From positions 270,001 through 302,000 of the forward strand of contig JBHLKY010000001.1 of the NCBI GenBank assembly GCA_048886185.1: 32,000 nt of DNA. The letters run 5' to 3'. A program made the position numbers and the translations under genes. This DNA comes from Candidatus Hermodarchaeota archaeon (GTDB lineage Archaea > Asgardarchaeota > Heimdallarchaeia > Hodarchaeales > Hodarchaeaceae). Shown one piece after another: positions 3 through 29,009 of this stretch (positions within the stretch are counted from its first letter, which is position 1; each line of letters opens with the position of its first letter). The notes under the pieces are model-generated. The model was given only the letters and a program-made list of their open reading frames with translations. It was not told the origin of the DNA and ran no database searches.

Positions 3-3000
3 CAGTATAATAATTTATTCATTGTGCCAGCGAGTGCCACCTCCAAGGGGCAGGAATGGAATTTTACCGTGAGAGTGTTTGATGGTATTCAATGGAGTGA
101 GCTCAATGTGTCTACCACGATCACAATTGCAAATACGAACCCTGAGGTTACCATCGCTGATATTACCACGGATCCTCAAACGACTGATGATCTGGTAGCT
201 AGTTGGACTTCGAGGGATAATGATAGTGATAGTTTAACTTTTATCCTCACTTGGTATATTAATGGGATTGAAAATGCCACGTTTGCAAATAAGACGGTGA
301 TCGGAGCGGGAAACACCACCAAAGGAGAGAAGTGGTATTTCACTGTCCAGGCCTATGATGGGGAAGGATTCTCCAATGTGTTCCCATTGGCTGCGAATGT
401 CACCATCCTGAATACCGCCCCAACAGCGGATAATTTAATCATTACCACTAATCCTACGACTATTGATGATTTAGTAGCAACTTGGGATTATTTTGACATT
501 GACAATGATCCCCGAGATGATGGGCTAGCTCGGATTTGCTGGTTCAAAAATGGGGAAAACCAAACTGCATTAACTAATCAAAAAACTATTGAGGCCACTA
601 ATACCTCTAAAAATCAGGTTTGGTGGTTTACAGTCCGTGTCTTTGACGGGGAGGACTATTCTGGGCTTTATGAGTCCGCTCACATACAGGTCTTAAATAG
701 TATTCCTATGGTGGGAAATTTGGAAATTAGGATGTCAGACCCCAAGACCACAGATGAGTTAGAGGCTCAATGGGTTGCTGTTGATGATGACAACGACATC
801 CTAAGCTACACCATCAAATGGTATAGAGATGCTGTCTATCAGTCAGCTTGGGATAATGAGATCACAATTCCTGCCAGTGCCACCTCAAAAGGCGAAACCT
901 GGTATTTTACTTTGAAAATGTTTGATGGGAGCGAGTATTCCTTAGAAGAGACCCTTAGTCCTGGTGTCCTTATTCTCAATACTCTTCCTGTCGTTGAAGA
1001 CCTGGCGTTAACCCCGGATCCTCAAACGACTGATGATCTGATAGCTAGTTGGATGTCGAGGGATAATGATAGTGATAGTTTAACTTTTATCGTTACCTGG
1101 TATGTCAATGGGATTGAAAATGCCACGTTTGCGAATAAAACGGTGATCGGGGCGGGAAATACTACCAAAGGGGAGGAATGGTATTTTAGTGTCCAAGCAT
1201 ACGATGGAGAAGGATTCTCCAATGTGTTCTCACTGGCTGCGAATGTCACCATTCTGAATACCGCTCCCACAGCGAGTAATTTGATGATTACTACTAATCC
1301 CACCACGCTTGATGACTTAGTTGCTGCTTGGGATTATTTCGATGTAGACAACGATCCCCGAGATGATACGCTAGCTCGGATTTGTTGGTTCAAGAATGGA
1401 TTGAATCAAAGCACTTTAGTCAATCAGAAAATCATTGGGGCAGGTAATACCTCCAAGAATCAAGTCTGGTGGTTTACTGTTCGTGTCTGTGACGGGGAGA
1501 CCCACTCGCTTAGTATCTACGAGTCCGCTCACATTTCTATTCAGAACTCTCTACCTTATAGTTCCTCCGCTCTCCCCATTCCCGTGAATCCTTCTAAGGC
1601 AAATGGCCTAGTATTGACTCTACCTGCCCTTCTTGCGGCTCTCTCAGACCCTGATCCGAGTGATGACATTGAAGTAGTCAGGATTCGCTGGTATAAGGAA
1701 GGTGTGCTGCAAGGGACGTTAAATGACTCCTTAATCGTTCCTGGAACCCGATTGACTAAAGGAGAGAGGTGGAATTATTCCATTGTGCCTTTCGATGGAG
1801 TCGGTTATGGGGTGGTGTGTGTGTCTGCGGAGATAGTCATCTTAAACTCTCGACCGACCATCATTAACACTTATTTCACGGCAACAACTGTTACCACCAT
1901 TAGCAACCTCGTGATCAGCTATCAAGCGGAGGATGCCGATGGGGACCCTATTATTGTCTCAGGGGTCCGCTGGTATCGGTATGATGCAGGGATTCCTGGG
2001 TGGGTGTACAATGCCACCTATGATGATTATGTGAGTCTCCCCGCTATAGCCACTACCAAGGGAGAGAGCTGGAAATATGAACTTGAAGTCTCTGATGGGA
2101 CTGATCCATCCGTTTGGAGAGAGGCGGCGAAAGAGGCGGATATTATCAACAGTCAGCCTCGCGTTGATCCCTTCAGTATCATACTGATAGGAGGTATGAC
2201 TACCTCTGAGCCTTTACAGGTGAGTTATGCCTGGTATGACGATGATCCTGGGGATAGTAATACCCAGACGATTATTACCTGGGAGAACAGTGGGGACTAT
2301 CTTGTCGATACCTATAGCACGACGTTGTCGGCGGATGAAACCATGGCGGGTGAGCGCTGGTGGGTGACGATCACTCCCTCTGATGGTGAGGACTATGGCG
2401 ATTCCGTCAACAGTAAGCGTTATGGTATAAGTATCATCATTGGTAACACTCCTCCCAGTCTCCTGCCAGATGACATTGTGATTAATGGGGAGTTTAATGG
2501 CACCGAATATCAAGGGACGAGTTTTGGCACCGTCTTCAATCTCAATCTTCATTATACGGCATTTGATCTTGATGGGGCTCAAGGGGTTCCAGCGTATGGC
2601 TTATCTCTCGTTGATGGTTTCGCGGTGGGATCCGAATATCGGTGGTATCGCAATCGTTCAGGTACCATAACTCTAATTTCAGCACTAAATGATGAAACAA
2701 CTGTTCCCTTCTATTATACTCAAAAAGGGGATGGTTGGTGGGTTCAAGTGCGTCCTCGAGATTTTTATGGAGATTTTGGCGTTCCTCAAAATTCTACTCA
2801 AATTACTATTGGGAATACCGCACCTCAAATAATTGGATTACACTGGGTACGAGTCACCTATTATACAACCAATAACTTGGTGTTTTATTATACGTTCTTT
2901 GACTATGATACTAAGGATATCCAACGAGGAGTTTTTATCCGCTGGTATCGGAATGGTACTTATTTACCAGGATTTAATAACAATACAGCGATTGCCTCTC

Positions 3001-5384
3001 AGTTCACGAAAAAAGGAGAAGTATGGTATGCGAATCTCAGTGTGTTTGATGGTGAATCTTACAGTGCATGGTATTGCTTACTTAATATCACTATCCAGAA
3101 TTCTCCCCCAACGGCAGCAAGCATTTCCATAACCCCCCTATCTCCCAACACCACCCAGCTCTTGGTAGCAACTTGGATCTTTAATGATGTCGATAATGAT
3201 TCTGAGGATCGTGGCGCCGCCCTCATTCAATGGTTCCGGAATGGGATCCGTGTGGATAACCTCACGAATAGCCAAACAGTGCCCTTCGCCTATACGAATC
3301 GGGGGGAAAGCTGGTACTTCATGGTGCAAGTCACTGATGGGTATAATTACTCCCTTACCCTTTATAAATCGAATACCATTATAATTATTAACTCGGCGCC
3401 AACTGCGGGCGACCTGCAGATCAACAACGGAGATGAGATTAAAACCACTCAAGACCTGGTGCTAAGTTGGAGATTCATTGATCCTGACAATGATATTGAG
3501 GATCGCGCCTCTGTGTTAATCCTCTGGTATTTGAATGGGATCGAACAACCTTTGTTCAGAAATCAATCGACAATTTTAGCGATTAATACTACGAAAAACC
3601 AGCAATGGAGGGTGGCAATCAAGGTCTGCGACAACGGCGGGTTATGGAGTGAGTTCTTGAATTCATCCCTGGTGGTGATCCTGAACTCTGAGCCCGAGAT
3701 TATTATTCATGAGAGCGCCCATCCTGACTTTATCGTTGAGGATGAAACATTTGAAATTAATAGCAGCGTTTTCAGCTATTCCGATGCGGACGGGGATGAA
3801 GCTCAATCCGTGATCAGGTGGTATTGCAATGGGGAGTTGATGTTCCAAAACCTCTGGGGTCTTGCTGCCACTGACACCGTTCCTGGTGATGTCTGGTATT
3901 ACACCATTCAGCCATTCGACGGGACTGATTTTGGGGAGGAATGTAAATCGCCTGCCATCCCCATTGAGAGTCGGCCTGTGATTCATAGTTTTGTGGCGAC
4001 TGCCCTCCCCGACACTGAGGGCCACTATGAGGTGGAGATCAACGTCACGGACTCTCGGAATGAGATTCTTCGCGTAGAATTTTGCTTAGCTCTCAACACC
4101 ACCACTGAACTCCCTCTTTTCGTGATCACCTCTCCCAAGGCTCCGGAGTCATCTCTTTGGCTTCTAGATTACACCCTCGACAGTTACTCCTATCTTGAGA
4201 CCCCGACTCATGTCACCGTGACCGTGGTGACTACAGTCACTTATTCTAATATCACCTCCGAAATCCCCTTAGTTCAGTCATTCACCTTTACACTCGAGGA
4301 TAAAGCACCTCCGCGGGTTCTCAATGCCTATTTTGAGAAGGATGATGAGCTCAATCCCACCAACCTCACTTTTTATGCTGAGGTGCAAGACTTTGGGTCA
4401 GGGATCGCTGAGGTCATTCTCTCCTATTGCTTCCAATCGAGTGAAAAGTTCAACCAGACGGGTGGGAATGGCGCTGCCTTCCTTCAAGACGATCTGGAAT
4501 GGCTAGAGGTGCCTATGATGGTTCAAGCTACCAATGAGAGCGGGAATTTCATCTTGTATGTGGTGACCGTGGGGTTTACCCAGGCCCCCTACAGCCTTGC
4601 CATTATCTATCGGGTTTCGACTGAGGATGTGGCGGGGAATAGCAATCCTGTGGCCTTTGACATCCGTGACTATCCCGAGCGACTTGGGGCTGAAAAAATT
4701 ATCTATAATCCTCCAGGTCTGCCAGAGTGGGTTCTCCTCGTGGCTGGGCTTGTAGTATTCGTCATCTTCATTGGGTCTATAGTTTATGTGAAATTCATCC
4801 GTAAACCCGAACTGGTCGGTTTGGATAAAGAATTGGTTATGGCCAAGGTCTCTGACATCCCTGATGCAGAGGTGATGGCCTCACTGGATGCTCATACCAT
4901 TGGTGTGATTGTTAGCTTTTTCGACCAGAGACACGGCCCGATTCCGATTATCATCGTCCCTGAGATTCTGAAAGACAACTTTAATAAGCTGGTGGAACTC
5001 TCGGATCGCTCTTTCAGTGGCACTGGCTTTGCTGATGATTTTGGTGTTGAAATTCCCTCCAGTTATGACTTTGTGTTATCCCAAGGCATTCGTACAAGTG
5101 TAATGTCTTTTGGGTACGCCCTAGAGCGGCCTGAATCCAGAGGAGGCCAAGAGAACCTTACCTGTAACATTATCATCCATCAAGATCTCTTTCCATTAGT
5201 TCAATCTTTCCAGAACGAGATCAAACGGAATGTCCATTCTCTTCACGTGAGAATGGATAAAAATCCTTCAGAAAAAAATGAGATCCGTAAACTAGTCTTT
5301 GAGCTCAGGAAATTCGTATCTAACATTATATTATCCTACGCGAGCATTTATGGCACAACAGAACTTATAGAAGAGCAGAAATGA
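3..5384 (+). CDS. Giant cell-surface protein, 5'-truncated by the window edge: about 14 cadherin/Ig-like repeats of ~94 aa, a single TM helix and a cytoplasmic uDENN/longin-like domain
   Basis: The frame is open from position 3 (QYNNLFI-VPASAT), so the GTG at 24 is not the true start. Recurrent N[TS]xP...DxDxD...W[YF]xNG...W[YFW]FxVxxxDG units. TM segment PEWVLLVAGLVVFVIFIGSIVYVKF followed by IRK. C-terminal IVSFFDQRHGP...SRGGQENL domain. Confidence 0.85.
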   Translation, partial: QYNNLFIVPASATSKGQEWNFTVRVFDGIQWSELNVSTTITIANTNPEVTIADITTDPQTTDDLVASWTSRDNDSDSLTFILTWYINGIENATFANKTVIGAGNTTKGEKWYFTVQAYDGEGFSNVFPLAANVTILNTAPTADNLIITTNPTTIDDLVATWDYFDIDNDPRDDGLARICWFKNGENQTALTNQKTIEATNTSKNQVWWFTVRVFDGEDYSGLYESAHIQVLNSIPMVGNLEIRMSDPKTTDELEAQWVAVDDDNDILSYTIKWYRDAVYQSAWDNEITIPASATSKGETWYFTLKMFDGSEYSLEETLSPGVLILNTLPVVEDLALTPDPQTTDDLIASWMSRDNDSDSLTFIVTWYVNGIENATFANKTVIGAGNTTKGEEWYFSVQAYDGEGFSNVFSLAANVTILNTAPTASNLMITTNPTTLDDLVAAWDYFDVDNDPRDDTLARICWFKNGLNQSTLVNQKIIGAGNTSKNQVWWFTVRVCDGETHSLSIYESAHISIQNSLPYSSSALPIPVNPSKANGLVLTLPALLAALSDPDPSDDIEVVRIRWYKEGVLQGTLNDSLIVPGTRLTKGERWNYSIVPFDGVGYGVVCVSAEIVILNSRPTIINTYFTATTVTTISNLVISYQAEDADGDPIIVSGVRWYRYDAGIPGWVYNATYDDYVSLPAIATTKGESWKYELEVSDGTDPSVWREAAKEADIINSQPRVDPFSIILIGGMTTSEPLQVSYAWYDDDPGDSNTQTIITWENSGDYLVDTYSTTLSADETMAGERWWVTITPSDGEDYGDSVNSKRYGISIIIGNTPPSLLPDDIVINGEFNGTEYQGTSFGTVFNLNLHYTAFDLDGAQGVPAYGLSLVDGFAVGSEYRWYRNRSGTITLISALNDETTVPFYYTQKGDGWWVQVRPRDFYGDFGVPQNSTQITIGNTAPQIIGLHWVRVTYYTTNNLVFYYTFFDYDTKDIQRGVFIRWYRNGTYLPGFNNNTAIASQFTKKGEVWYANLSVFDGESYSAWYCLLNITIQNSPPTAASISITPLSPNTTQLLVATWIFNDVDNDSEDRGAALIQWFRNGIRVDNLTNSQTVPFAYTNRGESWYFMVQVTDGYNYSLTLYKSNTIIIINSAPTAGDLQINNGDEIKTTQDLVLSWRFIDPDNDIEDRASVLILWYLNGIEQPLFRNQSTILAINTTKNQQWRVAIKVCDNGGLWSEFLNSSLVVILNSEPEIIIHESAHPDFIVEDETFEINSSVFSYSDADGDEAQSVIRWYCNGELMFQNLWGLAATDTVPGDVWYYTIQPFDGTDFGEECKSPAIPIESRPVIHSFVATALPDTEGHYEVEINVTDSRNEILRVEFCLALNTTTELPLFVITSPKAPESSLWLLDYTLDSYSYLETPTHVTVTVVTTVTYSNITSEIPLVQSFTFTLEDKAPPRVLNAYFEKDDELNPTNLTFYAEVQDFGSGIAEVILSYCFQSSEKFNQTGGNGAAFLQDDLEWLEVPMMVQATNESGNFILYVVTVGFTQAPYSLAIIYRVSTEDVAGNSNPVAFDIRDYPERLGAEKIIYNPPGLPEWVLLVAGLVVFVIFIGSIVYVKFIRKPELVGLDKELVMAKVSDIPDAEVMASLDAHTIGVIVSFFDQRHGPIPIIIVPEILKDNFNKLVELSDRSFSGTGFADDFGVEIPSSYDFVLSQGIRTSVMSFGYALERPESRGGQENLTCNIIIHQDLFPLVQSFQNEIKRNVHSLHVRMDKNPSEKNEIRKLVFELRKFVSNIILSYASIYGTTELIEEQK
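171..1535 (+). repeat. Near-identical DNA duplication of a two-domain block within a three-domain supra-repeat (period ~846 nt)
   Basis: gatcctcaaacgactgatgatctg occurs at 171 and 1017. gagtccgctcacat occurs at 672 and 1521 (offset 849, one extra codon). agtgccacctc occurs at 33 and 876. Confidence 0.9.
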
Positions 5385-20979: not shown

Positions 20980-21025
20980 ACAATTAAAGTCTTACGCTAT
21001 TTGAATTGAGATAAAGGGGATTTTT

Positions 21026-21568
21026 ATGGAAGTAAAGATTGGATCAACCATTATACGTTTGGTTCTAGGGGATATTACTCAAGAAAACACTGACATCATT
21101 GTAAATGCGGCAAACACTTCACTCAGAGGAGGTGGGGGTGTTGATGGAGCTATTCATCGTGCTGGGGGTTCTGAGATCCTGCAGGAATGTGTCGAGAAGT
21201 ATCCTGAGGGATGTGAAACGGGGGAAGCTCGAATAACTACAGCGGGACAGTTAAATGCTAAATTTGTAATCCATACACCTGGTCCGATTTGGAAAGGTGG
21301 GAGACAAAACGAGGATGATCTTCTAGCAAGTTGTTATCGTAATTCTCTCCATCTCGCCATAGAATATGATGCTAAAACAATTGCATTTCCGTCTATTTCA
21401 ACTGGAGTGTATAGGTTTCCGATTGATAGGGCATCAAAAATAGCACTTTTAACCGTTATTGAAAATCTAGTGTCGACTTCTATAATAGAAGTTCACTTTG
21501 TCTTATTTAGTGATTCAGACCTTCAAATCTACGAGAAAAATCTTCTAGAGATAATTAATAACAGATAA
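21026..21568 (+). CDS. ymdB: Macrodomain O-acetyl-ADP-ribose deacetylase / mono-ADP-ribosyl hydrolase (MacroD/YmdB type)
   Basis: [39 protein letters not shown]. Confidence 0.9.
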
Positions 21569-21612
21569 GTTAATCATCTCGTTCATTTGATTTGAAAAGA
21601 GGATGTAATGAA

Positions 21613-22362
21613 TTAAGAGTTACGTGGTTTTTTTGCTTTTATCCTAAATTTAGGGATTTTTTCTTCATATGTTGGTGGTGGTTTTTGCCTTGATGGTGTT
21701 TTTATTTTAATTTTTTTAGGAATAAGTCTGTTTATTCCCTTAGATTCCTTTTTCTTTTCTGCTCCTCTTGATGTGGGAATAGTCATATTTATTATTGCTG
21801 CTGAAGGTTTTTTATCACTAACTCTGGGAACAGGTTTGTTAACGAAATTAGATTTCTTTTTTGAAGAGCTTCCTAAGGAATGAGGTATTTTAATTTCCTT
21901 ATTCGGATGCTTAGGAATTGGAGCAGGTTGATTTGAAACCAATTTTTTTCGATTTCTTTTCGAAAGCGCCCCAAGACTAGTTGGTGGAGCATGAGATCTT
22001 TCTTGTTGTGAAGAAGACTTTGGAGGAGTTTTAGAATTAACTGTGTTTTGATCCTTCTCTTTTATTGGAGATTTAACTGGTTTGAGAGAAGTTTCGCCCT
22101 TAATTTGATCTGATAATGGAGGTGGAACATTATAATAAGGAGTATCATCTTTTGATGGTTCAATTGTTCCATGTCTGGAAGGTAGTGAGTTTGATGACTT
22201 TGGTATGTTTACTTTCAACTTTTGTTTTGGTGGAGGAAGTTCAAATACTTCTTCTGCCCCGTTTGGAAATTTAGATTTAATTATTGAACTTTTAGAATTC
22301 GTGGGGATCTTCTGTTTAATTTCCTTACTAGGCTTTTTCTCACGGATTTTCCATCTTACCAA
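21613..22362 (-). CDS. Lys/Pro/Ser-rich intrinsically disordered protein with short internal repeats
   Basis: 249-aa open frame in AT-rich DNA, TTG start, very low hydrophobic content, repeated P[TH]S[LR]G..KKK. Confidence 0.6.
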   Translation of the reverse strand: MVRWKIREKKPSKEIKQKIPTNSKSSIIKSKFPNGAEEVFELPPPKQKLKVNIPKSSNSLPSRHGTIEPSKDDTPYYNVPPPLSDQIKGETSLKPVKSPIKEKDQNTVNSKTPPKSSSQQERSHAPPTSLGALSKRNRKKLVSNQPAPIPKHPNKEIKIPHSLGSSSKKKSNFVNKPVPRVSDKKPSAAIINMTIPTSRGAEKKKESKGINRLIPKKIKIKTPSRQKPPPTYEEKIPKFRIKAKKPRNS

Positions 22363-22469
22363 TTAATCCAATTTCCTAATCTGTTAAAGGAAAATTCTAT
22401 TTTCCTTTTAATCTAATCAAATATTCTCTCTTAAATTTATAATGCTAACGAAATATATTACAAAATATC

Positions 22470-23054
22470 CTATTTTCCAAATAAAAATCCAATTCCAGAA
22501 AAGAGGAAAAATAAACCATATAGGATCCCTATTAAATCAGTAGTTATTAGCCCTGCAGTTAAGAAAAGTGCACCAAATACAAAAAAAGTTATTAGAGCAG
22601 TCCATTCTGCTGAGGGCCCTTTCTCAGATTGCGAAGTAATTCTAATGAATTGATATCGAGTGAAACTACGTAATAACAGGGCGGATGATACTGCTAAATA
22701 CGGAAATGCTAATATTGAGGATACAGTAATTTGAAGTTGAGTGAATTCATTTACAGGTAGAATTTCAACGTTAAAAGTTAACAATGGTTCTTCATTAAGA
22801 GGGAAGAACGAACTTGTAAGTATAACCAATAAGGGAATGATATTCGCTAATGAAAAAAAGTAAATCTCATTCAAGGTTGCTTTTACATCAATATAATATA
22901 GAATTCTTAGAAAATAAAATATAGTTATGGTTGCATATAGAGTCAGGTAGAGAATATTCATAGCATTACTGTCTTCATCACGTATGAAGAAAAAAATACT
23001 AGCTGATATTCCCATAAGGAAGACAAAAAATGCCATGGAATGACGTGAAGCCAT
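22470..23054 (-). CDS. Multi-pass (about 6 TM) membrane protein, last tightly coupled gene of the Ubl operon
   Basis: Alternating hydrophobic helices; 4 bp gap to the upstream gene. Confidence 0.75.
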   Translation of the reverse strand: MASRHSMAFFVFLMGISASIFFFIRDEDSNAMNILYLTLYATITIFYFLRILYYIDVKATLNEIYFFSLANIIPLLVILTSSFFPLNEEPLLTFNVEILPVNEFTQLQITVSSILAFPYLAVSSALLLRSFTRYQFIRITSQSEKGPSAEWTALITFFVFGALFLTAGLITTDLIGILYGLFFLFSGIGFLFGK

Positions 23055-23058
23055 CTTT

Positions 23059-24213
23059 TTAGCCCCATCGGTTATTTAGAAGATTTTCCTGAAACATTTT
23101 AATTAATTTCTCGTAATTCTTCCCAGAAAGACGATACATCTTTTTTGTTGAGATAGGTTTATTACATCGGGAACAAATATCTGCAACACTAAGCCATTTT
23201 TCTAACTCAAGCGAATGAGCTGGATGACCACAATGAGGACAGATGACTACTTTCTTATCTGGTTCAGTGGGAAATCCATAACAAAAAATACATCGAAAGT
23301 CATCATGAGATAAATGTTGGCCAGAGGGAATAAGCTTAGTAATGATAGCTGGATTTAGTCTGTCGATACGAGTAACTGTTCTCCCTGTTTGTATTCCTGG
23401 AGCTACTGTAACAGAGTTGATACTTTCGGATCGTGGTGTTCTAGACATTTGGGGTACTGATCTTGGTTGTAATAGGCTTGCTTGATTCGTTCTTGGTTGG
23501 CTATTTGCATTGCGAGGACTAACTGAGGATGTTCTATTAACAATAAAAGATCTCCCTAATGTTTGTTGAGGTAAACGATTAACAGTCACACGACGGATTG
23601 GAACAAGAACAACCTTAAGTATATAATATTGGATCAGAAAAATAATACTAACACTAACAAAACATAATCCACTAAATTCAATAATCCTAGTTTGGATCCA
23701 AAAAAAAGCTAAACTTAAAATTATACAGAGATTATACAGAATGACAATTTTGTTGGGAACCTTCCTTCTAAAGATAAAAATTGATGGATACCTGTTTGAA
23801 TAATACTTTTGGAGGAGAAATAGGAGAAATATAAAGAATGGTAACACAAAAATAATACTAAATATGTTTAGAAAAACAAAATAATTTCCACCATTAATAA
23901 ACTCAATGTCGAGAGAGATTTCGAAGAAAGATGATCGTAGAAAATCATTTTCTCCTAAAGACGCTGTATGAGCTATCAATGTTCCCCCATATGCGATTAA
24001 CGACGGGATTCCAATAAAGATTCCCGAGGCAATTGGAGCATTATAATGCTGGAAATATCGCCATTCCTCAAGAAATTTTAAAATCAAAATTGCAGTTAAA
24101 GTAATATAAGCAATTGTAAGAGCAGTTTCTATTGGTTGATCAGTGAGTAATGTTAATAGCGTAAAAACAAACCCGACGACACAGATAGAAAGATATACAT
24201 TACGCCCGACCAA
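23059..24213 (-). CDS. Multi-pass membrane protein with C-terminal RING-variant zinc finger (putative membrane E3 ligase)
   Basis: About 6 TM helices, an R/S/P/Q-rich linker, then CIFC-x13-CPHCGHPAH-x2-E-x2-KWL-x5-CSRC (nt 23164-23292). Confidence 0.75.
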   Translation of the reverse strand: MVGRNVYLSICVVGFVFTLLTLLTDQPIETALTIAYITLTAILILKFLEEWRYFQHYNAPIASGIFIGIPSLIAYGGTLIAHTASLGENDFLRSSFFEISLDIEFINGGNYFVFLNIFSIIFVLPFFIFLLFLLQKYYSNRYPSIFIFRRKVPNKIVILYNLCIILSLAFFWIQTRIIEFSGLCFVSVSIIFLIQYYILKVVLVPIRRVTVNRLPQQTLGRSFIVNRTSSVSPRNANSQPRTNQASLLQPRSVPQMSRTPRSESINSVTVAPGIQTGRTVTRIDRLNPAIITKLIPSGQHLSHDDFRCIFCYGFPTEPDKKVVICPHCGHPAHSLELEKWLSVADICSRCNKPISTKKMYRLSGKNYEKLIKMFQENLLNNRWG

Positions 24214-24231
24214 ATACTTTTCGACCTCGAG

Positions 24232-25152
24232 TTAATTCTCATGATCATATTCTAAAAACATACTACCATTTTTCTCTGCTAGTGGAAGAAGGGTATTCAT
24301 CATCTCAGGAAGGCTCTCTAGAGGGCAATTAAGGACTTGGTAGGGTGGTTCTTCCCAGGTTTGCAAATCCTCTTTTAAACGGAATATTTTAAAGCCATAT
24401 GAACGTTTAGATATTTTTGTTGGATCAATAACTAAAGCAATAGGTGCTGTTAACTGGGAGTCTTTCGTCCTTCCAAGTTTTTGGTAGCGAACTTGAGTCT
24501 CAAAATCGGTTTGACTCATGAATACTCCATATGATGGGTGACTATGATACCAACCAAGAATAAGCTGATCATGGGTTTTCATTTTTATTTCATTATACAC
24601 TCTGACCATGGATTGAGGATCTTGGATTTGTGCATTTACCTCAGTGCCATGACCAATTGGATAGGCATCCTCGACATTTAAACATGCTAATGGAGTATCT
24701 TTTTGTTCAATTTGTCCCGTTAAAAGCCCGATTACCTCAATCCATTTACTTTGGGGTGTATTCGGATTTGCGTACTTTAAAGCATGTAAAGCAAGCTTTA
24801 TGTAAGCTTTAAGATGAATTTTAACACGAGAAGGCTTCGAGTCGGGATCTAGGTCATCAAGATTTAAGTCAACAGATTCTGTGTTTTCTTCTCGATTTTG
24901 ATTCATATTATGATTTTCATCCTTATTGAGATTCTCTGATCCGTTGGTAAAAAGCTTCTCTGTTTTTGTTTTTAATTGGGAAGGTTTAAACTGTATTTGC
25001 TTACTTAATGGATTCCAAGTATAATTATCAGGCGGGAGAGTAATGAAAGGAAATTTTAACGTAAATGATAAAGTTTGAGGGTCAAATGTTAATGAAAGAT
25101 CCCGTAGTAGTAATTCGAAAACATTTTTGGGAATTTTATTATTATTAGGCAT
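24232..25152 (-). CDS. JAB1/MPN+ (JAMM) metallo-isopeptidase, Rpn11/CSN5-like, with N-terminal extension
   Basis: EVIGLL plus GWYHSHPSYGVFMSQTD (E...HxH-x7-S-x2-D intact), TQ..YQ, ALVIDP. Confidence 0.9.
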   Translation of the reverse strand: MPNNNKIPKNVFELLLRDLSLTFDPQTLSFTLKFPFITLPPDNYTWNPLSKQIQFKPSQLKTKTEKLFTNGSENLNKDENHNMNQNREENTESVDLNLDDLDPDSKPSRVKIHLKAYIKLALHALKYANPNTPQSKWIEVIGLLTGQIEQKDTPLACLNVEDAYPIGHGTEVNAQIQDPQSMVRVYNEIKMKTHDQLILGWYHSHPSYGVFMSQTDFETQVRYQKLGRTKDSQLTAPIALVIDPTKISKRSYGFKIFRLKEDLQTWEEPPYQVLNCPLESLPEMMNTLLPLAEKNGSMFLEYDHEN

Positions 25153-25181
25153 TTTTCTAGCAACGCTCTATGTTTAGATTT

Positions 25182-25709
25182 TTACCATTTTTCAGAAGCA
25201 TATTTCTTAGTAATTTTATGGGCTTTTTTCAAGAAATTCTTGCGATCACTAAGATATTCTTGAGCTGCTTTCTTATTGAAAACATCATGAGGATTAGTAT
25301 ACGCTGTGTCAATGTTGAACATTGCTAAAATCGAATAAATTATTGTACTAATGTTTTTTGAAGGAGACCAACCGTCTGGTCTTCCCACAAGGTCGGGGTC
25401 AACAAGAGCTAGGCATATATTCCGTTTTCCTTGATATTCGTCAGGTTTTGGCCAGAAATTTGGATGCCAAATTGGAGTATGTAATCGGACAAAAGGGGGG
25501 GAATATGGGTAGTTTGATCCAAACTTAATTTCTAGTTTGAATTTGCCCTTTTCATAAGGGGTTCCTTTCGGTCCCTCAAGAAGAATTGCTAAGTGTTCTA
25601 CGCTTTTTTTTCCGCCTGGAAAGGCCTTTAGCTGCTTAATGGTTTTTTGTTTGTATAATTTTTTTAGTTGTTTATAATCATCAGCGATTCGTTTAAGTCT
25701 GATAGACAT
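25182..25709 (-). CDS. Ubiquitin-conjugating enzyme E2 (UBC fold)
   Basis: GPKGTPYEKG.F, YPYSPP, HPN motif, catalytic Cys (codon 25415-25413) in ICL, WSP. AGGTG SD. Confidence 0.92.
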   Translation of the reverse strand: MSIRLKRIADDYKQLKKLYKQKTIKQLKAFPGGKKSVEHLAILLEGPKGTPYEKGKFKLEIKFGSNYPYSPPFVRLHTPIWHPNFWPKPDEYQGKRNICLALVDPDLVGRPDGWSPSKNISTIIYSILAMFNIDTAYTNPHDVFNKKAAQEYLSDRKNFLKKAHKITKKYASEKW

Positions 25710-25725
25710 TTCTCACACCTTTTTA

Positions 25726-26970
25726 TTACTCAATTTTCAATTTAATATAGGATTGAGTGCCATCATCAAACCCCGTGACCAATATAGTCTCATAATCTCG
25801 GATTCCAGCTTCAAATATGCTCTGATTTGTATCAATTTCATTAATATCTGAATTATCTATACGAAAAACAATTGGAGGAAATTCTGGATCAATGGTGAGC
25901 TTTTTTTCTTCCGCTAATTTATTGATGATCTTTTGAATATTTGCCTTAGAATTCACTTTTATCCGATAGAGGGGGGAATGGTTATTACCACACATTGTAC
26001 AATCTGGGTTCTTAGGTTTTTCAATTTCATAGAACTTCCCAGTCAAACCATTGTATATCACATAATTTAATTGAAGTGTTCCAAGTTTTCTTTTTTCTGG
26101 AGGTGTGTGGAGATGATGAAGAATTTTAACTGCTTCTTGTGATTGTAGAGATGCCATTACACAATTGATGGTGATAACTGTTGGCTCGTGATTATCTATT
26201 ATTTGGATGATCTGATCAGTCGTAAACGGTTGTGAGCCGGGAAAATATTGTTTAAGTAGATGATTCGCATATTCTCTAATGGTGTCAACTTCATCTTGTT
26301 TGAGAATGTTCACCGGCCGATTGTAATCCTGTTCAAATTTCAATTGGCCTTTGAGTATACAATGAGCTGGTCTACGGGGATTACCTACTAAAGTGCAAGC
26401 CCCTAGCTGATCTTGTTCTCGTTCTGTTAATGGATCACACTCTAAACAAGCATTACTGAATGGCCAGACACAATAAACGTGTCCATTGAATGCTGCTGTA
26501 CCAGCATCGATCAATGGCTTTCGATTATGAATAGCTCGCCTGTTTAATTCTGACCTTGCTTCTATTGAATCTAAGCCAGCGATGTAAAGATCAGCTTCAT
26601 TATATAGATGGGGAGGTAGATCTTGAAGCGCGCAATTATGAGCCTCTACTTCAATGAAAGGATTCAATTCTTGTAAACGTTTAGCCGCATATTGTGCCTT
26701 AGATGTTCCCTCTGTGGCTCCGATGAACAGTACCTGGCGATTCAAATTAGAATATTCAATTGTATCAAGATCCACCAGGATTAATCGGCCGACTCCGACC
26801 ATTGCGAGGTTTTTTGCAACTTCCACACCGAGGCCACCAACGCCAACAATAAGAACGGTACTTTTTTTAAGGATCTCTTGTTTCCATCCAGGTAAACGGA
26901 GTTGGCGATCAAAGCGACGCTTTTCTTCTTCAGTGAACAGGTTACTGGTGAAACTTGATATTTTATTCAT
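25726..26970 (-). CDS. Ubl-activating enzyme E1 (ThiF fold with UBA2/UBA3-like catalytic Cys segment and C-terminal ubiquitin-fold-like domain)
   Basis: RFDRQ, GVGGLG, DLDTIEYSNLNRQ, Zn pairs CLEC/CTMC, catalytic GACTLVGNPRRPAHCI. Confidence 0.9.
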   Translation of the reverse strand: MNKISSFTSNLFTEEEKRRFDRQLRLPGWKQEILKKSTVLIVGVGGLGVEVAKNLAMVGVGRLILVDLDTIEYSNLNRQVLFIGATEGTSKAQYAAKRLQELNPFIEVEAHNCALQDLPPHLYNEADLYIAGLDSIEARSELNRRAIHNRKPLIDAGTAAFNGHVYCVWPFSNACLECDPLTEREQDQLGACTLVGNPRRPAHCILKGQLKFEQDYNRPVNILKQDEVDTIREYANHLLKQYFPGSQPFTTDQIIQIIDNHEPTVITINCVMASLQSQEAVKILHHLHTPPEKRKLGTLQLNYVIYNGLTGKFYEIEKPKNPDCTMCGNNHSPLYRIKVNSKANIQKIINKLAEEKKLTIDPEFPPIVFRIDNSDINEIDTNQSIFEAGIRDYETILVTGFDDGTQSYIKLKIE

Positions 26971-26983
26971 ATTTTTTCAACTA

Positions 26984-27346
26984 CTAATTTATTGATCCAG
27001 CTGTTGAAACTGGGATAATCAAACATTCAAGTCCATCTTCAATATCATAATTCGAGAGAACATCATCTGCATCTAAGGTTCTTCCACTTATGGATATATG
27101 GAAGTCTTGTGGATCAAGACCGAAGATTCCTCCAAGCGTTTCTTTTAAATCTGAGACCCCCATCTCAGGATCGATTGTGAGTTTTTCAAGTTTCTCTCCA
27201 GGCCCAATTGTGGATCGAAAGAATAAACTAACGCGAGAATCTTTTGGGATTTTACTTGTAGGCACTTTTGTCGTCACTACAGGAGTTTCTGAGTTCTTCT
27301 TTTCTTCTTCAATTTCCAGGTCATCAAAATCTTCATTTTCAGACAT
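26984..27346 (-). CDS. Ubiquitin-like protein 2 (acidic N-tail; C-terminal STAG masked by SIN)
   Basis: Beta-grasp pattern FFRST...SGRTLD...LSNYDIEDG..LIIP aligns by eye to ubiquitin. The start is moved to 27346 because of a GGAGA SD and collinearity with the Ubl1 N-terminus. Confidence 0.85.
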   Translation of the reverse strand: MSENEDFDDLEIEEEKKNSETPVVTTKVPTSKIPKDSRVSLFFRSTIGPGEKLEKLTIDPEMGVSDLKETLGGIFGLDPQDFHISISGRTLDADDVLSNYDIEDGLECLIIPVSTAGSIN

Positions 27347-27522
27347 TAAGCAATTCTCCATTCTGATTAAAAGCATCCAAATTATCAATTCATCTTCAAT
27401 ATGAAAAACATTGTTTTTTGAATCTTCTTTTGTTTGCAAATAATCTTCTGAATACGTCAATTTAATTATTCCCTTTTATCTCATAGGTACAAAATTGATG
27501 TGATTTGATGATGGAAATTGAT

Positions 27523-27726
27523 TCAAATCAAAATCTCCCCTAAGATAGACTCTTTTCCTGATTGAAGAAGCCAAAGATTAGCTTGAATATAATACTCAAT
27601 TGACGCTAGTAACAAATTTAAATCGCTTTTGCAGTCTTTATGTTCGCTAAGAGCCCTTTTTGCTTTCTCTCGCTCAACCATGGCAAAAACAATTGTTTCA
27701 ATAATACTAGCTCGAACCTCTTTCAA
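27523..27726 (-). CDS. Possible small helical hypothetical protein between the two Ubls
   Basis: 67-codon frame with a TTG start only, no recognisable motif, same strand as the operon. Confidence 0.25.
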   Translation of the reverse strand: MKEVRASIIETIVFAMVEREKAKRALSEHKDCKSDLNLLLASIEYYIQANLWLLQSGKESILGEILI

Positions 27727-27805
27727 TAAAAAGCCATCCTGAGAAGATAAAAAGAAGGGGAGTTCTTTCTTTTTATTCTAAAAAGTTGAATAATATGGAA
27801 AAAAC

Positions 27806-28153
27806 TCATCCAGCCGTACTGTGAGGGATCAAAAGAATTTCATCGCCGTTATCGACACCATAATCACCTAAAGGTGCTGACTCATCTAGAGTCCGACCGG
27901 CGTGGCTTAGATGAAAATCATCTGGATTTAACCCAAAGATGTTAGCCAAGGTGTCTCTGACGTCTCTAACAGGAGTGTTTTCTCCTACAGAAATTTTTTC
28001 AGTACGTTCAGGCCCAACGGTGGATTTGAAGAAAATATTCTTCTTAGGACCTGCAGATACTCCTGATACTGGAGTTTTCGATTGGGCGGGAGTTTTGGAT
28101 TTAATTCTGGTTTTTTCTTCTAAATCAAAGTCCAAATCTTCAAAATCTGACAT
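27806..28153 (-). CDS. Ubiquitin-like protein 1 (acidic N-tail; free C-terminal STAG)
   Basis: IFFKST...AGRTLD...LGDYGVDNGD.ILLIP; ends HSTAG-stop. AGGTGA SD. Confidence 0.88.
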   Translation of the reverse strand: MSDFEDLDFDLEEKTRIKSKTPAQSKTPVSGVSAGPKKNIFFKSTVGPERTEKISVGENTPVRDVRDTLANIFGLNPDDFHLSHAGRTLDESAPLGDYGVDNGDEILLIPHSTAG

Positions 28154-28177
28154 TTTTTTATCACCTTATTCTTTTGT

Positions 28178-28273
28178 ATGAGTTTTATTTTGTATATGAA
28201 ACTCATGTAAGATACGTACCTTACGTATTTATAAAACTTACGGAATATACGTAACACCCGAAAAATATATAAG
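28178..28273. promoter_or_regulatory. Divergent promoter with four TACGTA-type boxes, TATA elements and an 8-bp inverted repeat
   Basis: TACGTA at 28213, 28222 and 28248; TACGGA at 28239; palindromic TTTATAAA at 28228-28235; A-rich BRE-like run plus TATATAAG at 28266-28273; ATGAGTTT-13-AAACTCAT at 28178-28206. Confidence 0.65.
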
Positions 28274-28304
28274 GGTGAAAGTAATATTTTCCATCAAAGA
28301 GATT

Positions 28305-28724
28305 ATGAAAGAAGATGAGGTTGACTTATTGTCAGAAAGTGCCCAAAATACCAAAATTTCTAGTAAGGCGTGGGAACTTTTACGATGGGCAAAATTTGAG
28401 CTTGATGCAAAATCTTACAGTGATGTAATTGTTTTATTAAACAAGAAAATTAATAACCGGTCGAAAAGTATGGAAAAGGCATTAGAAAACTTCGATGAGG
28501 AACGACATAGGATCAAAGTAAAAACACCCGGTAATGATGAAGAACAAAGCATTTTCTTAGAAAAACCTAAAACAATCTTATTAAGACCCGAAGCTCGAAA
28601 GATTCTCAATCGATTAAAATTAGAAAGCAATAAACCAGCATATACATTTTCGGATGGAATTGAATTTATAATAAAAGGAAATAAAGAAATCTGGAACGCT
28701 ATTCCTGATCGTTTGAAGAAATAA
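28305..28724 (+). CDS. Tandem ribbon-helix-helix-like DNA-binding protein
   Basis: Two similar units, NTKISSKAWELLRWAK..AKSYSDVIVLL and KTILLRPEARKILNRLK..AYTFSDGIEFII, resemble the archaeal RHH/VapB-type pattern TI.IS...Y..L...K...SFSDVI. The ATG at 28305 is preferred over the GTG at 28275 because of the TATA position. Confidence 0.55.
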   Translation: MKEDEVDLLSESAQNTKISSKAWELLRWAKFELDAKSYSDVIVLLNKKINNRSKSMEKALENFDEERHRIKVKTPGNDEEQSIFLEKPKTILLRPEARKILNRLKLESNKPAYTFSDGIEFIIKGNKEIWNAIPDRLKK

Positions 28725-28738
28725 AAGGATTAATTTAA

Positions 28739-28960
28739 TTGTGTGGTATTACCGTGTCAGAGACAGATTTAGAGGTCATTTTTGATTTAATTGCACGAAA
28801 TCCCCCAATATTCGCAGTTATTGGTGGTATCAGCCTCGTTCTTCTTGGAGGAATACTAGAAATTGAAGCTCTGGTTTCTTCTGGTTGGAGTGCTCTGGTG
28901 ACTGGCGCTTTTCTCCAAGTAGGCTGGATTGTAATGATAAACTCTAGAAGAAAACGTTGA
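28739..28960 (+). CDS. Small two-TM membrane protein
   Basis: Two hydrophobic helices and a basic C-terminus (RRKR); 14 bp after the RHH gene. Confidence 0.55.
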   Translation: MCGITVSETDLEVIFDLIARNPPIFAVIGGISLVLLGGILEIEALVSSGWSALVTGAFLQVGWIVMINSRRKR

Positions 28961-29009
28961 AAGTACAAATTTGACTGAGATCTCATCATATATTGTAGGA
29001 AAGAAATAA

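Follow-up and report, generated by a model that had tools for sequence, protein, structure and literature searches.

Ubiquitin-type conjugation in archaea is known from operons. Candidatus Caldiarchaeum subterraneum and Asgard archaea have been reported to encode ubiquitin, an E1-like activating enzyme, an E2-like conjugating enzyme, the RING protein srfp and an Rpn11/JAMM protease in this way (PMC5654768), and an archaeal operon of eukaryotic type, with a ubiquitin-like protein (Ubl), E1, E2, RING and JAMM, is already known and has been reconstituted (PMC5654768; bioRxiv 10.1101/2023.07.25.550441). The present work concerns a window of 32,000 nucleotides from the genome of a Candidatus Hermodarchaeota archaeon (order Hodarchaeales in GTDB; assembly GCA_048886185.1, contig JBHLKY010000001.1, positions 270,001 to 302,000 of the forward strand), in which seven genes encode two Ubls, an E1, an E2, a JAMM protease, a six-helix membrane protein with a C-terminal variant RING domain (the transmembrane RING or TM-RING protein) and a RING-less membrane partner. 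This locus is read here, with a probability of about 0.7, as a chromosomal and vertically inherited Hodarchaeales Ubl operon with a dedicated ubiquitin-type ligase (E3) anchored in the cell membrane. The family assignments, the invariant pattern of zinc ligands, the topology, the gene order, the co-occurrence of the genes among genomes and the lysine-poor tether of the TM-RING protein all point to a membrane-anchored E3. To our knowledge, small soluble RING proteins are the only ones with which an archaeal ubiquitin cascade has so far been reconstituted.

The Hodarchaeales operon encodes together the same five functions as the Caldiarchaeum and Asgard operon. Like the Caldiarchaeum system it combines an E1 whose single adenylation domain is joined by a C-terminal Ubl domain, a UBC-type E2 with loop-4 and loop-7 motifs, and a pro-Ubl that would need trimming by JAMM. 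Unlike that system, in which the RING is a small soluble protein, it carries its RING at the C-terminus of a six-helix membrane protein; moreover the sixth zinc ligand is Glu, a probable RING-less paralogue of the membrane protein is encoded, and the Ubls end in Ala-Gly instead of Gly-Gly and have N-terminal tails of about 40 residues. [quoted passage not shown] A cluster of that type is found in the host genome as a separate locus on another contig.

Parts of the present cluster type are in print. Heimdallarchaeota AB_125 carries an orthologous locus in rearranged form, of which the E1 (OLS32357) is tabulated in a supplement together with its C-terminal Ubl domain (PMC5654768) and the E2 (HeimAB125_09840) has been named a bona fide E2 (PMC9192718). 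The soluble genes of this orthologue are catalogued and the ligase-like gene is not: the membrane RING (OLS32361, HeimAB125_09820) is annotated as 'hypothetical protein', as is every database-named member of the TM-RING family, so the ligase-like gene has apparently been overlooked. In the literature searched, of which figures were not searchable and one key survey was not covered, no membrane RING was found described for an archaeal ubiquitin operon. Relative to this literature the putative membrane-embedded ligase, its Glu-containing RING, its RING-less twin, the lysine-free tether and the Ala-Gly tags are new.

Operon organisation and soluble components

All seven open reading frames (ORFs) of the cluster lie on the minus strand of the window and span 22470-28153 (Table 1). 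The initial annotation had described seven genes on one strand, with gaps of 13, 16, 29, 18 and 4 bp from Ubl2 to the last gene and with all catalytic motifs intact; coordinates and gaps agree exactly, and the catalytic motifs of E1, E2 and JAMM are indeed intact. Ubl1 is separated from Ubl2 by 459 bp. The longest ORF of Ubl2 opens at 27460, and the ATG at 27346 parallels the starts of Ubl1 and of the homologues; in the same manner the TTG start of the TM-RING gene is aligned with the starts of its homologues. Since runs of T lie 3' of the Ubl1 stop codon, Ubl1 may additionally be expressed as a short transcript of its own. The host genome measures 4.8 Mb and is 96% complete, and the named homologues belong to Hodarchaeales, Heimdallarchaeota and further Asgard metagenome bins.

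The E1 is a ThiF protein (Pfam, 2.6e-54) with a single adenylation domain and a C-terminal Ubl-like domain, for which the only Pfam match is a weak one to Rad60-SLD (0.089). It contains GVGGLG at residues 43-48; the sequence GACTL holds a catalytic-type Cys192, and the CxxC pairs CLEC and CTMC make up a zinc motif. Its best relatives in the PDB are human UBA1 (1.5e-36), the NEDD8 E1 subunit UBA3 (1.7e-31, over residues 33-359) and SAE2. The E2 has a canonical UBC fold (Pfam UQ_con, 3.2e-27) with PYSPP in loop 4, HPN at 82-84, Cys99 and WSP in loop 7, and the nearest solved structures are UBE2T and UBE2L3 (about 8e-17). The JAMM/MPN+ metalloprotease (Pfam JAB, 1.8e-15) has a variable N-terminal extension of about 100 residues, and its motifs EVIG and HSHPSYGVFMSQTD give the arrangement E...HxH...S..D, with H-x-H-x7-S-x2-D. 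Its top PDB matches are 6fjv and 6fju, each named '26S proteasome regulatory subunit N11-like protein' (1.3e-12), followed by Rpn11 and CSN5. The solved relatives nearest to the enzymes of the operon (UBA1, UBE2T, UBE2L3, Rpn11, CSN5) are thus of eukaryotic type. Ubl1 matches ubiquitin and archaeal-type Ubl chains in the PDB; these Ubl chains and the N11-like chains of 6fjv and 6fju are presumably Caldiarchaeum entries, the organism not being given by the search.

Ubl1 reaches the Pfam ubiquitin cut-off (1.9e-7) and Ubl2 falls below it (2.7e-4). Ubl1 is built of an acidic, SKTP-rich N-terminal tail of about 40 residues followed by a beta-grasp domain, and it ends in the mature form IPHSTAG; its paralogue Ubl2 ends in IPVSTAGSIN, a pro-form with three extra residues. 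The tail IPxSTAG, either bare or followed by 1-6 residues, was present in 40/40 Ubls from loci of two Asgard classes, and none of the 40 ended in Gly-Gly. Judged from these termini, the Ubls of the operon belong to a Ubl family of their own, marked by a conserved Ala-Gly end. That pro-forms exist implies a processing step, for which the JAMM of the operon is the obvious candidate and likely enzyme; Caldiarchaeum Rpn11 has been shown to process a pro-Ubl (PMC5654768). The N-terminal tails begin with an acidic stretch resembling F-E-D-L-D-F and carry one or two S-K-T-P or K-x-K-T-P motifs (27220-28153, minus strand; Ubls of the fetched loci L013-L051). In its strict form, K-x-K-[TK]-P, the motif occurs in 20 of the 40 Ubl tails, compared with a frequency of 0.5 per 1000 residues for other ORFs, and the Lys/Thr/Pro motif is found again in the Lys/Pro-rich protein encoded nearby. 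The motif might supply an acceptor lysine or serve for docking.

The zinc domain of the TM-RING protein

The AlphaFold2 (AF2) model of the TM-RING protein, made with 32 homologues, has a mean predicted local distance difference test (pLDDT) value of 79.5 and a confident C-terminal domain at residues 288-384. In a Foldseek comparison of the zinc domain with the PDB all of the top 50 matches were RING/U-box ligase domains, many of them solved together with an E2; the best had an E value of 0.055 and none reached 0.001. In comparisons of sequence profiles the best match of the domain was the RING-H2 finger of RNF24 (PDB 2ep4; E 2.9e-5), whose ligand columns fall in register. The domain has the cross-brace treble-clef core and the central helix of the RING/U-box fold.

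The signature of the domain, in which Glu takes the sixth ligand position, is C-x2-C...C-x2-C-x4-H-x2-E-x3-W...C-x2-C. Eleven positions (C308, C311, C325, P326, C328, H333, E336, W340, C347, R349 and C350) are invariant in 32/32 homologues. A library of 1.84 billion proteins yielded 84 representatives of the family, 67 of them complete enough to show the motif; Glu stood at the sixth position in 66/67 and the Trp (W340) in 67/67. Compared with RNF24, the positions C-x2-C, C, H, W and C-x2-C align column by column. RNF24 has Cys at the position of Glu336, its His corresponds to a variable residue here (His, Tyr or Phe at position 330), and the additional invariant Cys325 creates a second C-x2-C knuckle. 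On the basis of this alignment, zinc site 1 would consist of C308, C311, H333 and E336, and site 2 of C325, C328, C347 and C350.

The residues expected to touch the E2 are also conserved. I309 and F310 directly follow the first Cys and W340 lies four residues past the sixth ligand, which we take to be the usual E2-contact positions, as in c-Cbl and related RING-E2 complexes. Among both homologues and library representatives I309 is almost invariant, and F, I, L or Y occupies position 310. In the srfp of Caldiarchaeum the equivalent I30 and W58 are needed for activity (PMC5654768). A feature search of the ESM Atlas returned the Asgard cluster of the TM-RING protein itself (0.93); the bacterial Prok-RING_1 clusters that it also returned are weak (0.79) and serve as no more than leads.

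Two other proteins of the host genome, of 439 residues (L031:1480-2799, minus strand) and 325 residues (L032:1474-2451, minus strand), have C-terminal RING-like fingers. They too end up just short of the Pfam cut-offs (23-24 against 27.3 bits for zf-RING_2; 28.9 against 29.1 for Prok-RING_1), and RING domains of Asgard archaea may be systematically under-annotated.

Membrane domain and tether

The AF2 model shows six long helices between residues 3 and 203 of the TM-RING protein, together with two small beta-hairpins. Two motifs of the cytoplasmic face, EWRY..YNAP.AS and RYP.IFI.R, are conserved. The loop at 137-154 (4 K/R, 0 D/E) and the stretch after helix 6 (5 K/R, 0 D/E) are basic, and the loops at 24-27 and 84-116 are acidic. 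With six helices and the positive-inside rule, the prediction fits a topology in which both termini, and hence the RING domain, are in the cytoplasm. In this topology only short hairpin loops lie outside the cell, so that any recognition must take place in the bilayer or in the cytoplasm. When the fold of the membrane domain was searched with Foldseek against the PDB, with a wide VIA-align search and by shape in the ESM Atlas, nothing rose above background; the rows for Hrd1, rhodopsin-transducer and designed helices in these searches represent common helical arrangements.

The tether of 76 residues between the membrane domain and the zinc domain contains 12 Arg and no Lys. Over the 32 homologues the tethers contain 27 Lys against 461 Arg, with depletion in every clade, whereas the flanking RING domains have 311 against 205 and the other genes of the window 290 against 240; these are plain counts from related sequences, given without a formal statistical test. 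A lysine-free flexible arm beside the site where an E2 would dock is expected from selection against self-modification, and the depletion may be taken as indirect evidence for lysine-directed conjugation nearby.

The RING-less partner

The last gene of the operon encodes a protein with six transmembrane helices (AF2 pLDDT 83), in which the order and sizes of the elements equal those of the ligase membrane domain: three helices, a beta-hairpin, a helix, a basic loop and two helices. BLASTP gave no significant similarity between the partner and the membrane domain (E 0.83); the relation was seen by profile methods only. In hhalign the two gave a probability of 78.8% and an E value of 1.6e-5 over 130 collinear columns, pairing EWRYY..YNAP.AS of the ligase with LYY.D..ATLNE of the partner, and RYP.IFI.R with RY.FIR. 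Moreover, three independent cross-matches agree with this: in whole-genome searches the profile of the ligase membrane domain matches at 5.2e-8 a gene that the partner profile identifies as a partner, the partner profile matches a ligase at 9.3e-4, and the ligase profile recovers a partner-like protein from the 1.84-billion-protein library at 3.2e-4, all values to be read with the tendency of membrane proteins to inflate profile scores. It is likely that the partner and the membrane domain of the ligase are distant paralogues, the partner having no RING. A physical complex of ligase and partner is suggested by their paralogy, by the gap of 4 bp between their genes and by the conservation of that adjacency; a complex prediction with the ligase membrane domain scored 0.00 against a mark of 0.32, which counts neither for nor against binding.

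Conservation among Asgard archaea

Twenty-five orthologous regions from two Asgard classes were fetched and all of their genes mapped. Eleven genomes of the same genus have the order Ubl, Ubl, E1, E2, JAMM, TM-RING, partner, with contig ends cutting three of these loci. Two genomes of another family of the same order keep the operon order with a single Ubl, and four genomes from two more families of the class have the operon intact or locally rearranged; among three more loci of the class one shows the same local rearrangement. Five genomes of a different class (under database names such as Promethearchaeota and Hermodarchaeota) have Ubl ... Ubl, E1, E2, JAMM and TM-RING, with no partner. In that class the operon also includes a divergently transcribed gene for a membrane-anchored Ubl protein of about 265 residues (L044:2871-3680, minus strand; L045-L048), adjoined by a winged-helix gene; no counterpart of this protein was found in the host genome beyond the two Ubls themselves.

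The distribution was then counted in an even sample of 301 Asgard genomes, in which related genomes are not independent, so that the figures are counts only. A profile of the membrane domain built from both classes matched 113/301 genomes, and the operon-type JAMM was found in 116/301, of which three had paralogue-level scores and 113 orthologue-level scores. Both genes were present in about 110 genomes, the membrane domain alone in 3, the JAMM alone in 3 and neither in about 185. The positive genomes fall in nine GTDB families; the module was absent from one large family (0/76 genomes), from another (0/19) and from one family of the window's own class (0/11). In all coordinate pairs compared (15 genomes of five families outside the class) the membrane gene lies directly 3' of the JAMM gene on the same strand. 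The partner profile matched 50 genomes of the sample, all in the window's class.

Given the gene content and order kept in 25 loci and the co-occurrence in about 110 of 301 genomes, the cluster is not a chance arrangement. Whether the TM-RING gene lies next to E1 and E2 in relatives had been set beforehand as one test of the initial annotation, and both the synteny and the survey clearly place it there. The simplest explanation is that the membrane RING is original to the module and that the membrane domain was duplicated once in the class of the window.

Proposed mechanism and alternative explanations

The observed gene set, motifs, RING/U-box fold, membrane topology, paralogy, co-occurrence and adjacency are compatible with the following course, of which we infer every biochemical step, the heteromer and the membrane or membrane-proximal substrates. 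JAMM would trim the three extra residues from pro-Ubl2, Ubl1 being already mature. The E1 would adenylate the C-terminal Gly of the ...STAG tail and form a thioester on Cys192, from which the Ubl would pass to Cys99 of the UBC-type E2. The charged E2 would then dock on the cytoplasmic variant RING domain (residues 283-384), held at the membrane by the 76-residue lysine-free tether, and the Ubl would be transferred to lysines of proteins that lie on the cytoplasmic face of the membrane or close to it. JAMM may also remove the marks by deconjugation. Most likely the RING-less partner would pair with the membrane domain of the ligase as a heteromer; in the lineages that have no partner the ligase may self-associate.

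The zinc domain might also not be that of a ligase at all, in which case the membrane protein would serve as a non-catalytic anchor, a receptor or a substrate that binds the Ubl, the E2 or the JAMM and does no more than localise or regulate the cascade, and the E2 would act without an E3. Several properties of the domain favour this and weigh against a membrane-anchored E3. No Pfam RING model reaches its cut-off (Prok-RING_1 1.3e-3, zf-RING_16 2.8e-4, zf-RING_2 4.2e-3), the sub-threshold matches recurring in 20/20, 17/20 and 15/20 homologous domains, respectively. There are seven Cys/His ligands instead of eight, and with Glu336 at the sixth position, zinc site 1 may be only a weak one or may be missing. 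Ligands 4 and 5 are separated by four residues as against two or three in the canonical RING, and the linchpin Arg/Lys position after the last Cys is Asn351, the invariant Arg349 preceding that Cys. Weak partial matches to ubiquitin-binding zinc fingers and zinc ribbons point the same way. The domain does not fit the eight-ligand C3H2C3 or C3HC4 pattern, and because of the Glu ligand, the longer spacing and Asn351 it is classed as a RING-fold variant, outside every curated RING family. A further point against the preferred reading as a whole is that the partner profile matched 0/82 genomes of the other module-bearing families; since it is missing from the other operon-bearing class, the partner is not essential to the module. 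However, the fold matches are RING/U-box E3 domains throughout, many of them E2-bound, and the E2-contact Trp and hydrophobic residues, whose srfp equivalents I30 and W58 are required (PMC5654768), are invariant or nearly so. The lysine-free tether also fits an active ligase. Taken together, a role other than that of a ligase seems improbable, and the membrane-anchored E3 is preferred.

What such an E3 would act on is less firmly indicated. The initial annotation held that the pathway tags membrane proteins: the polytopic nature of the ligase-like gene product and its cytoplasmic RING fold agree with this, but the choice of substrate follows from the location of the E3 only. [quoted passage not shown] Hrd1 and gp78 do consist of a multi-pass membrane domain followed by a cytoplasmic RING-H2-type finger that recruits a UBC E2, and Pex2/10/12 and Asi1/3, as heteromers of paralogous membrane subunits, offer a looser comparison. 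The likeness to Hrd1 and gp78 nevertheless appears to be one of architecture only: there are six helices here and eight there, the membrane domain showed no homology to be detected by sequence or by fold, and no luminal or extracellular recognition partner was found. Doa10/MARCH ligases differ in that their finger is an N-terminal C4HC3 RING-CH, whereas here it is C-terminal with ligands C2-C2-H-E-C2. No homology to Hrd1 or Doa10 was found, nor any link to Cdc48 or the proteasome among the genes of the window, no search aimed at Cdc48 having been made; the ERAD-like role is left without support and is unlikely.

A defence function would have the operon tag viral proteins at the membrane, as an antiviral module resembling Bil or the Cap2/Cap3 genes of CBASS (cyclic oligonucleotide-based antiphage signalling system). 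The same four soluble functions do occur in bacterial defence operons, and the E1 adenylation domain matches the 'E1-E2' models of PADLOC at 7.4e-22. That match reflects generic ThiF homology, at 75.6 bits as compared with 184 for Pfam ThiF and 129 for human UBA1; the E2 (0.0071) and the JAMM (1.4e-4) gave far less, the Ubls and both membrane proteins gave none, and the 2023 copy of PADLOC assigned no defence system to the operon. Moreover the module keeps its chromosomal position and its flanking genes, and it is present in most genomes of several families, a picture more suggestive of vertical inheritance than of a defence island. A defence module is accordingly highly improbable, and a vertically inherited operon with a membrane-anchored E3 accounts better for these data.

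A more ambitious form of the preferred reading would have a heteromeric membrane ligase read membrane proteins within the bilayer and mark them for extraction by Cdc48 and the proteasome or for ESCRT sorting. We regard this as quite unlikely. If it were true, the archaeal ancestors of eukaryotes would have had ubiquitin-type surveillance of membrane proteins, on the same logic as ERAD and endocytic down-regulation, before any endoplasmic reticulum existed, and the membrane domain underlying it would later have been replaced in eukaryotes.

Of the archaea known so far, Hodarchaeales and related lineages are among those closest to eukaryotes, and isolates of Hodarchaeales have been reported (bioRxiv 10.1101/2025.02.26.640444). 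A conserved Asgard-wide operon with an integral-membrane protein as its sole ligase would put ubiquitin-type tagging at the membrane before eukaryotes, and the present data suggest that membrane-bound tagging of this type does predate them. The operon is also a compact seven-gene set for asking how membrane E3 ligases choose their substrates, and it offers three unusual features that can be tested, namely the RING with Glu for Cys, the Ala-Gly Ubls and the lysine-free tether.

Other ubiquitin-type loci in the host genome

The host genome contains at least two further clusters of E1, E2 and ubiquitin or Ubl genes. Its other E1-bearing loci lie on contigs C14 (about 34-46 kb), C8 (about 10-13 kb) and C10 (about 154-156 kb). 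One of these has the best ubiquitin and the best E2 matches together with an additional E2-like gene. Another has an E2, a weak Ubl match and an E1 of 415 residues; a third has an E1 of 435 residues with two weak E2-like matches. With these other clusters in the genome, the operon is a separate, paralogous Ubl system and not 'the' Asgard ubiquitin cluster. It had been described as a self-contained pathway, and it does hold Ubl, E1, E2, JAMM and E3-like genes, but it is not the only ubiquitin system of its genome.

Genomic neighbourhood

In the window the operon is surrounded by housekeeping genes without relation to it, which encode ABC exporters, kynureninase, an acetyltransferase, a macro-domain protein and an acyl-CoA dehydrogenase. 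Genes for Cdc48, the proteasome or ESCRT were not found among them, and no derlin or Sel1/Hrd3 within the window, where no search aimed at Sel1 was made. A DER1 profile had no match in the host genome and none in any control genome, and is uninformative. An Rfam scan of 21000-29000 found no RNA family. The coordinates of the operon and of its immediate neighbours are collected in Table 1.

Table 1. Features of the Ubl operon and adjoining genes (positions in the window)
Feature	Position	Strand	Size and remarks
Ubl1	28153..27806	-	115 amino acids
Ubl2	27346..26984	-	120 amino acids; ATG start
E1	26970..25726	-	414 amino acids
E2	25709..25182	-	175 amino acids
JAMM	25152..24232	-	306 amino acids
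TM-RING protein (membrane zinc-finger)	24213..23059	-	384 amino acids; TTG start
Six-helix membrane domain	23596..24213	-	TM-RING residues 1-206; AF2 pLDDT mostly >85
Disordered tether	23368..23595	-	TM-RING residues 207-282; 76 residues; pLDDT <50; Arg/Ser/Thr/Pro/Gln-rich
Variant RING/U-box-fold zinc domain	23062..23367	-	TM-RING residues 283-384
TM partner	23054..22470	-	194 amino acids
Lys/Pro/Ser-rich protein	21613..22362	-	249 amino acids; no Pfam match
Divergent 149-residue protein	28275..28724	+	149 amino acids; weak VAPB_antitox match (0.012)

The Lys/Pro/Ser-rich protein encoded next to the partner has 47 Lys and 35 Pro among its 249 residues and is probably disordered. It carries the motif [WYF]xI[KR]xKxP at both the N- and the C-terminus (WKIREKKP and PKFRIKAKKP). 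Homologues are located downstream of the partner in 9 loci of the same genus, proteins with the same terminal motifs adjoin the operon in the genus of the AB_125 type (L024:1696-2406, plus strand), and in the other Asgard class a protein with the motif stands beside the operon, fused to a long coiled coil (L044:1132-2235, minus strand). This protein may be a dedicated substrate or adaptor of the operon.

On the other side, the divergent gene for a protein of 149 residues occupies the same place beside the first Ubl gene in 9/11 loci of the same genus and in one locus of the same order, and it has in common with Ubl1 an AT-rich intergenic region of 121 bp. From the sequence, its product is likely a local regulator, possibly of the ribbon-helix-helix type.

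Inside the gap between Ubl1 and Ubl2 there is an ORF of 67 residues (27523-27726, minus strand) with no Pfam match. It is recognisable in the three closest genomes only, at about 46-48% identity, and may be a small gene or merely conserved non-coding sequence. Just downstream of the cluster a stand-alone macro-domain protein is encoded (21026-21568, plus strand; Pfam Macro, 4.4e-44); macro domains bind or remove ADP-ribose. At the start of the window an ORF of 1793 residues (3-5384, plus strand), open at the window edge, has a G+C content of 0.43-0.49 compared with about 0.35 in the rest of the window.

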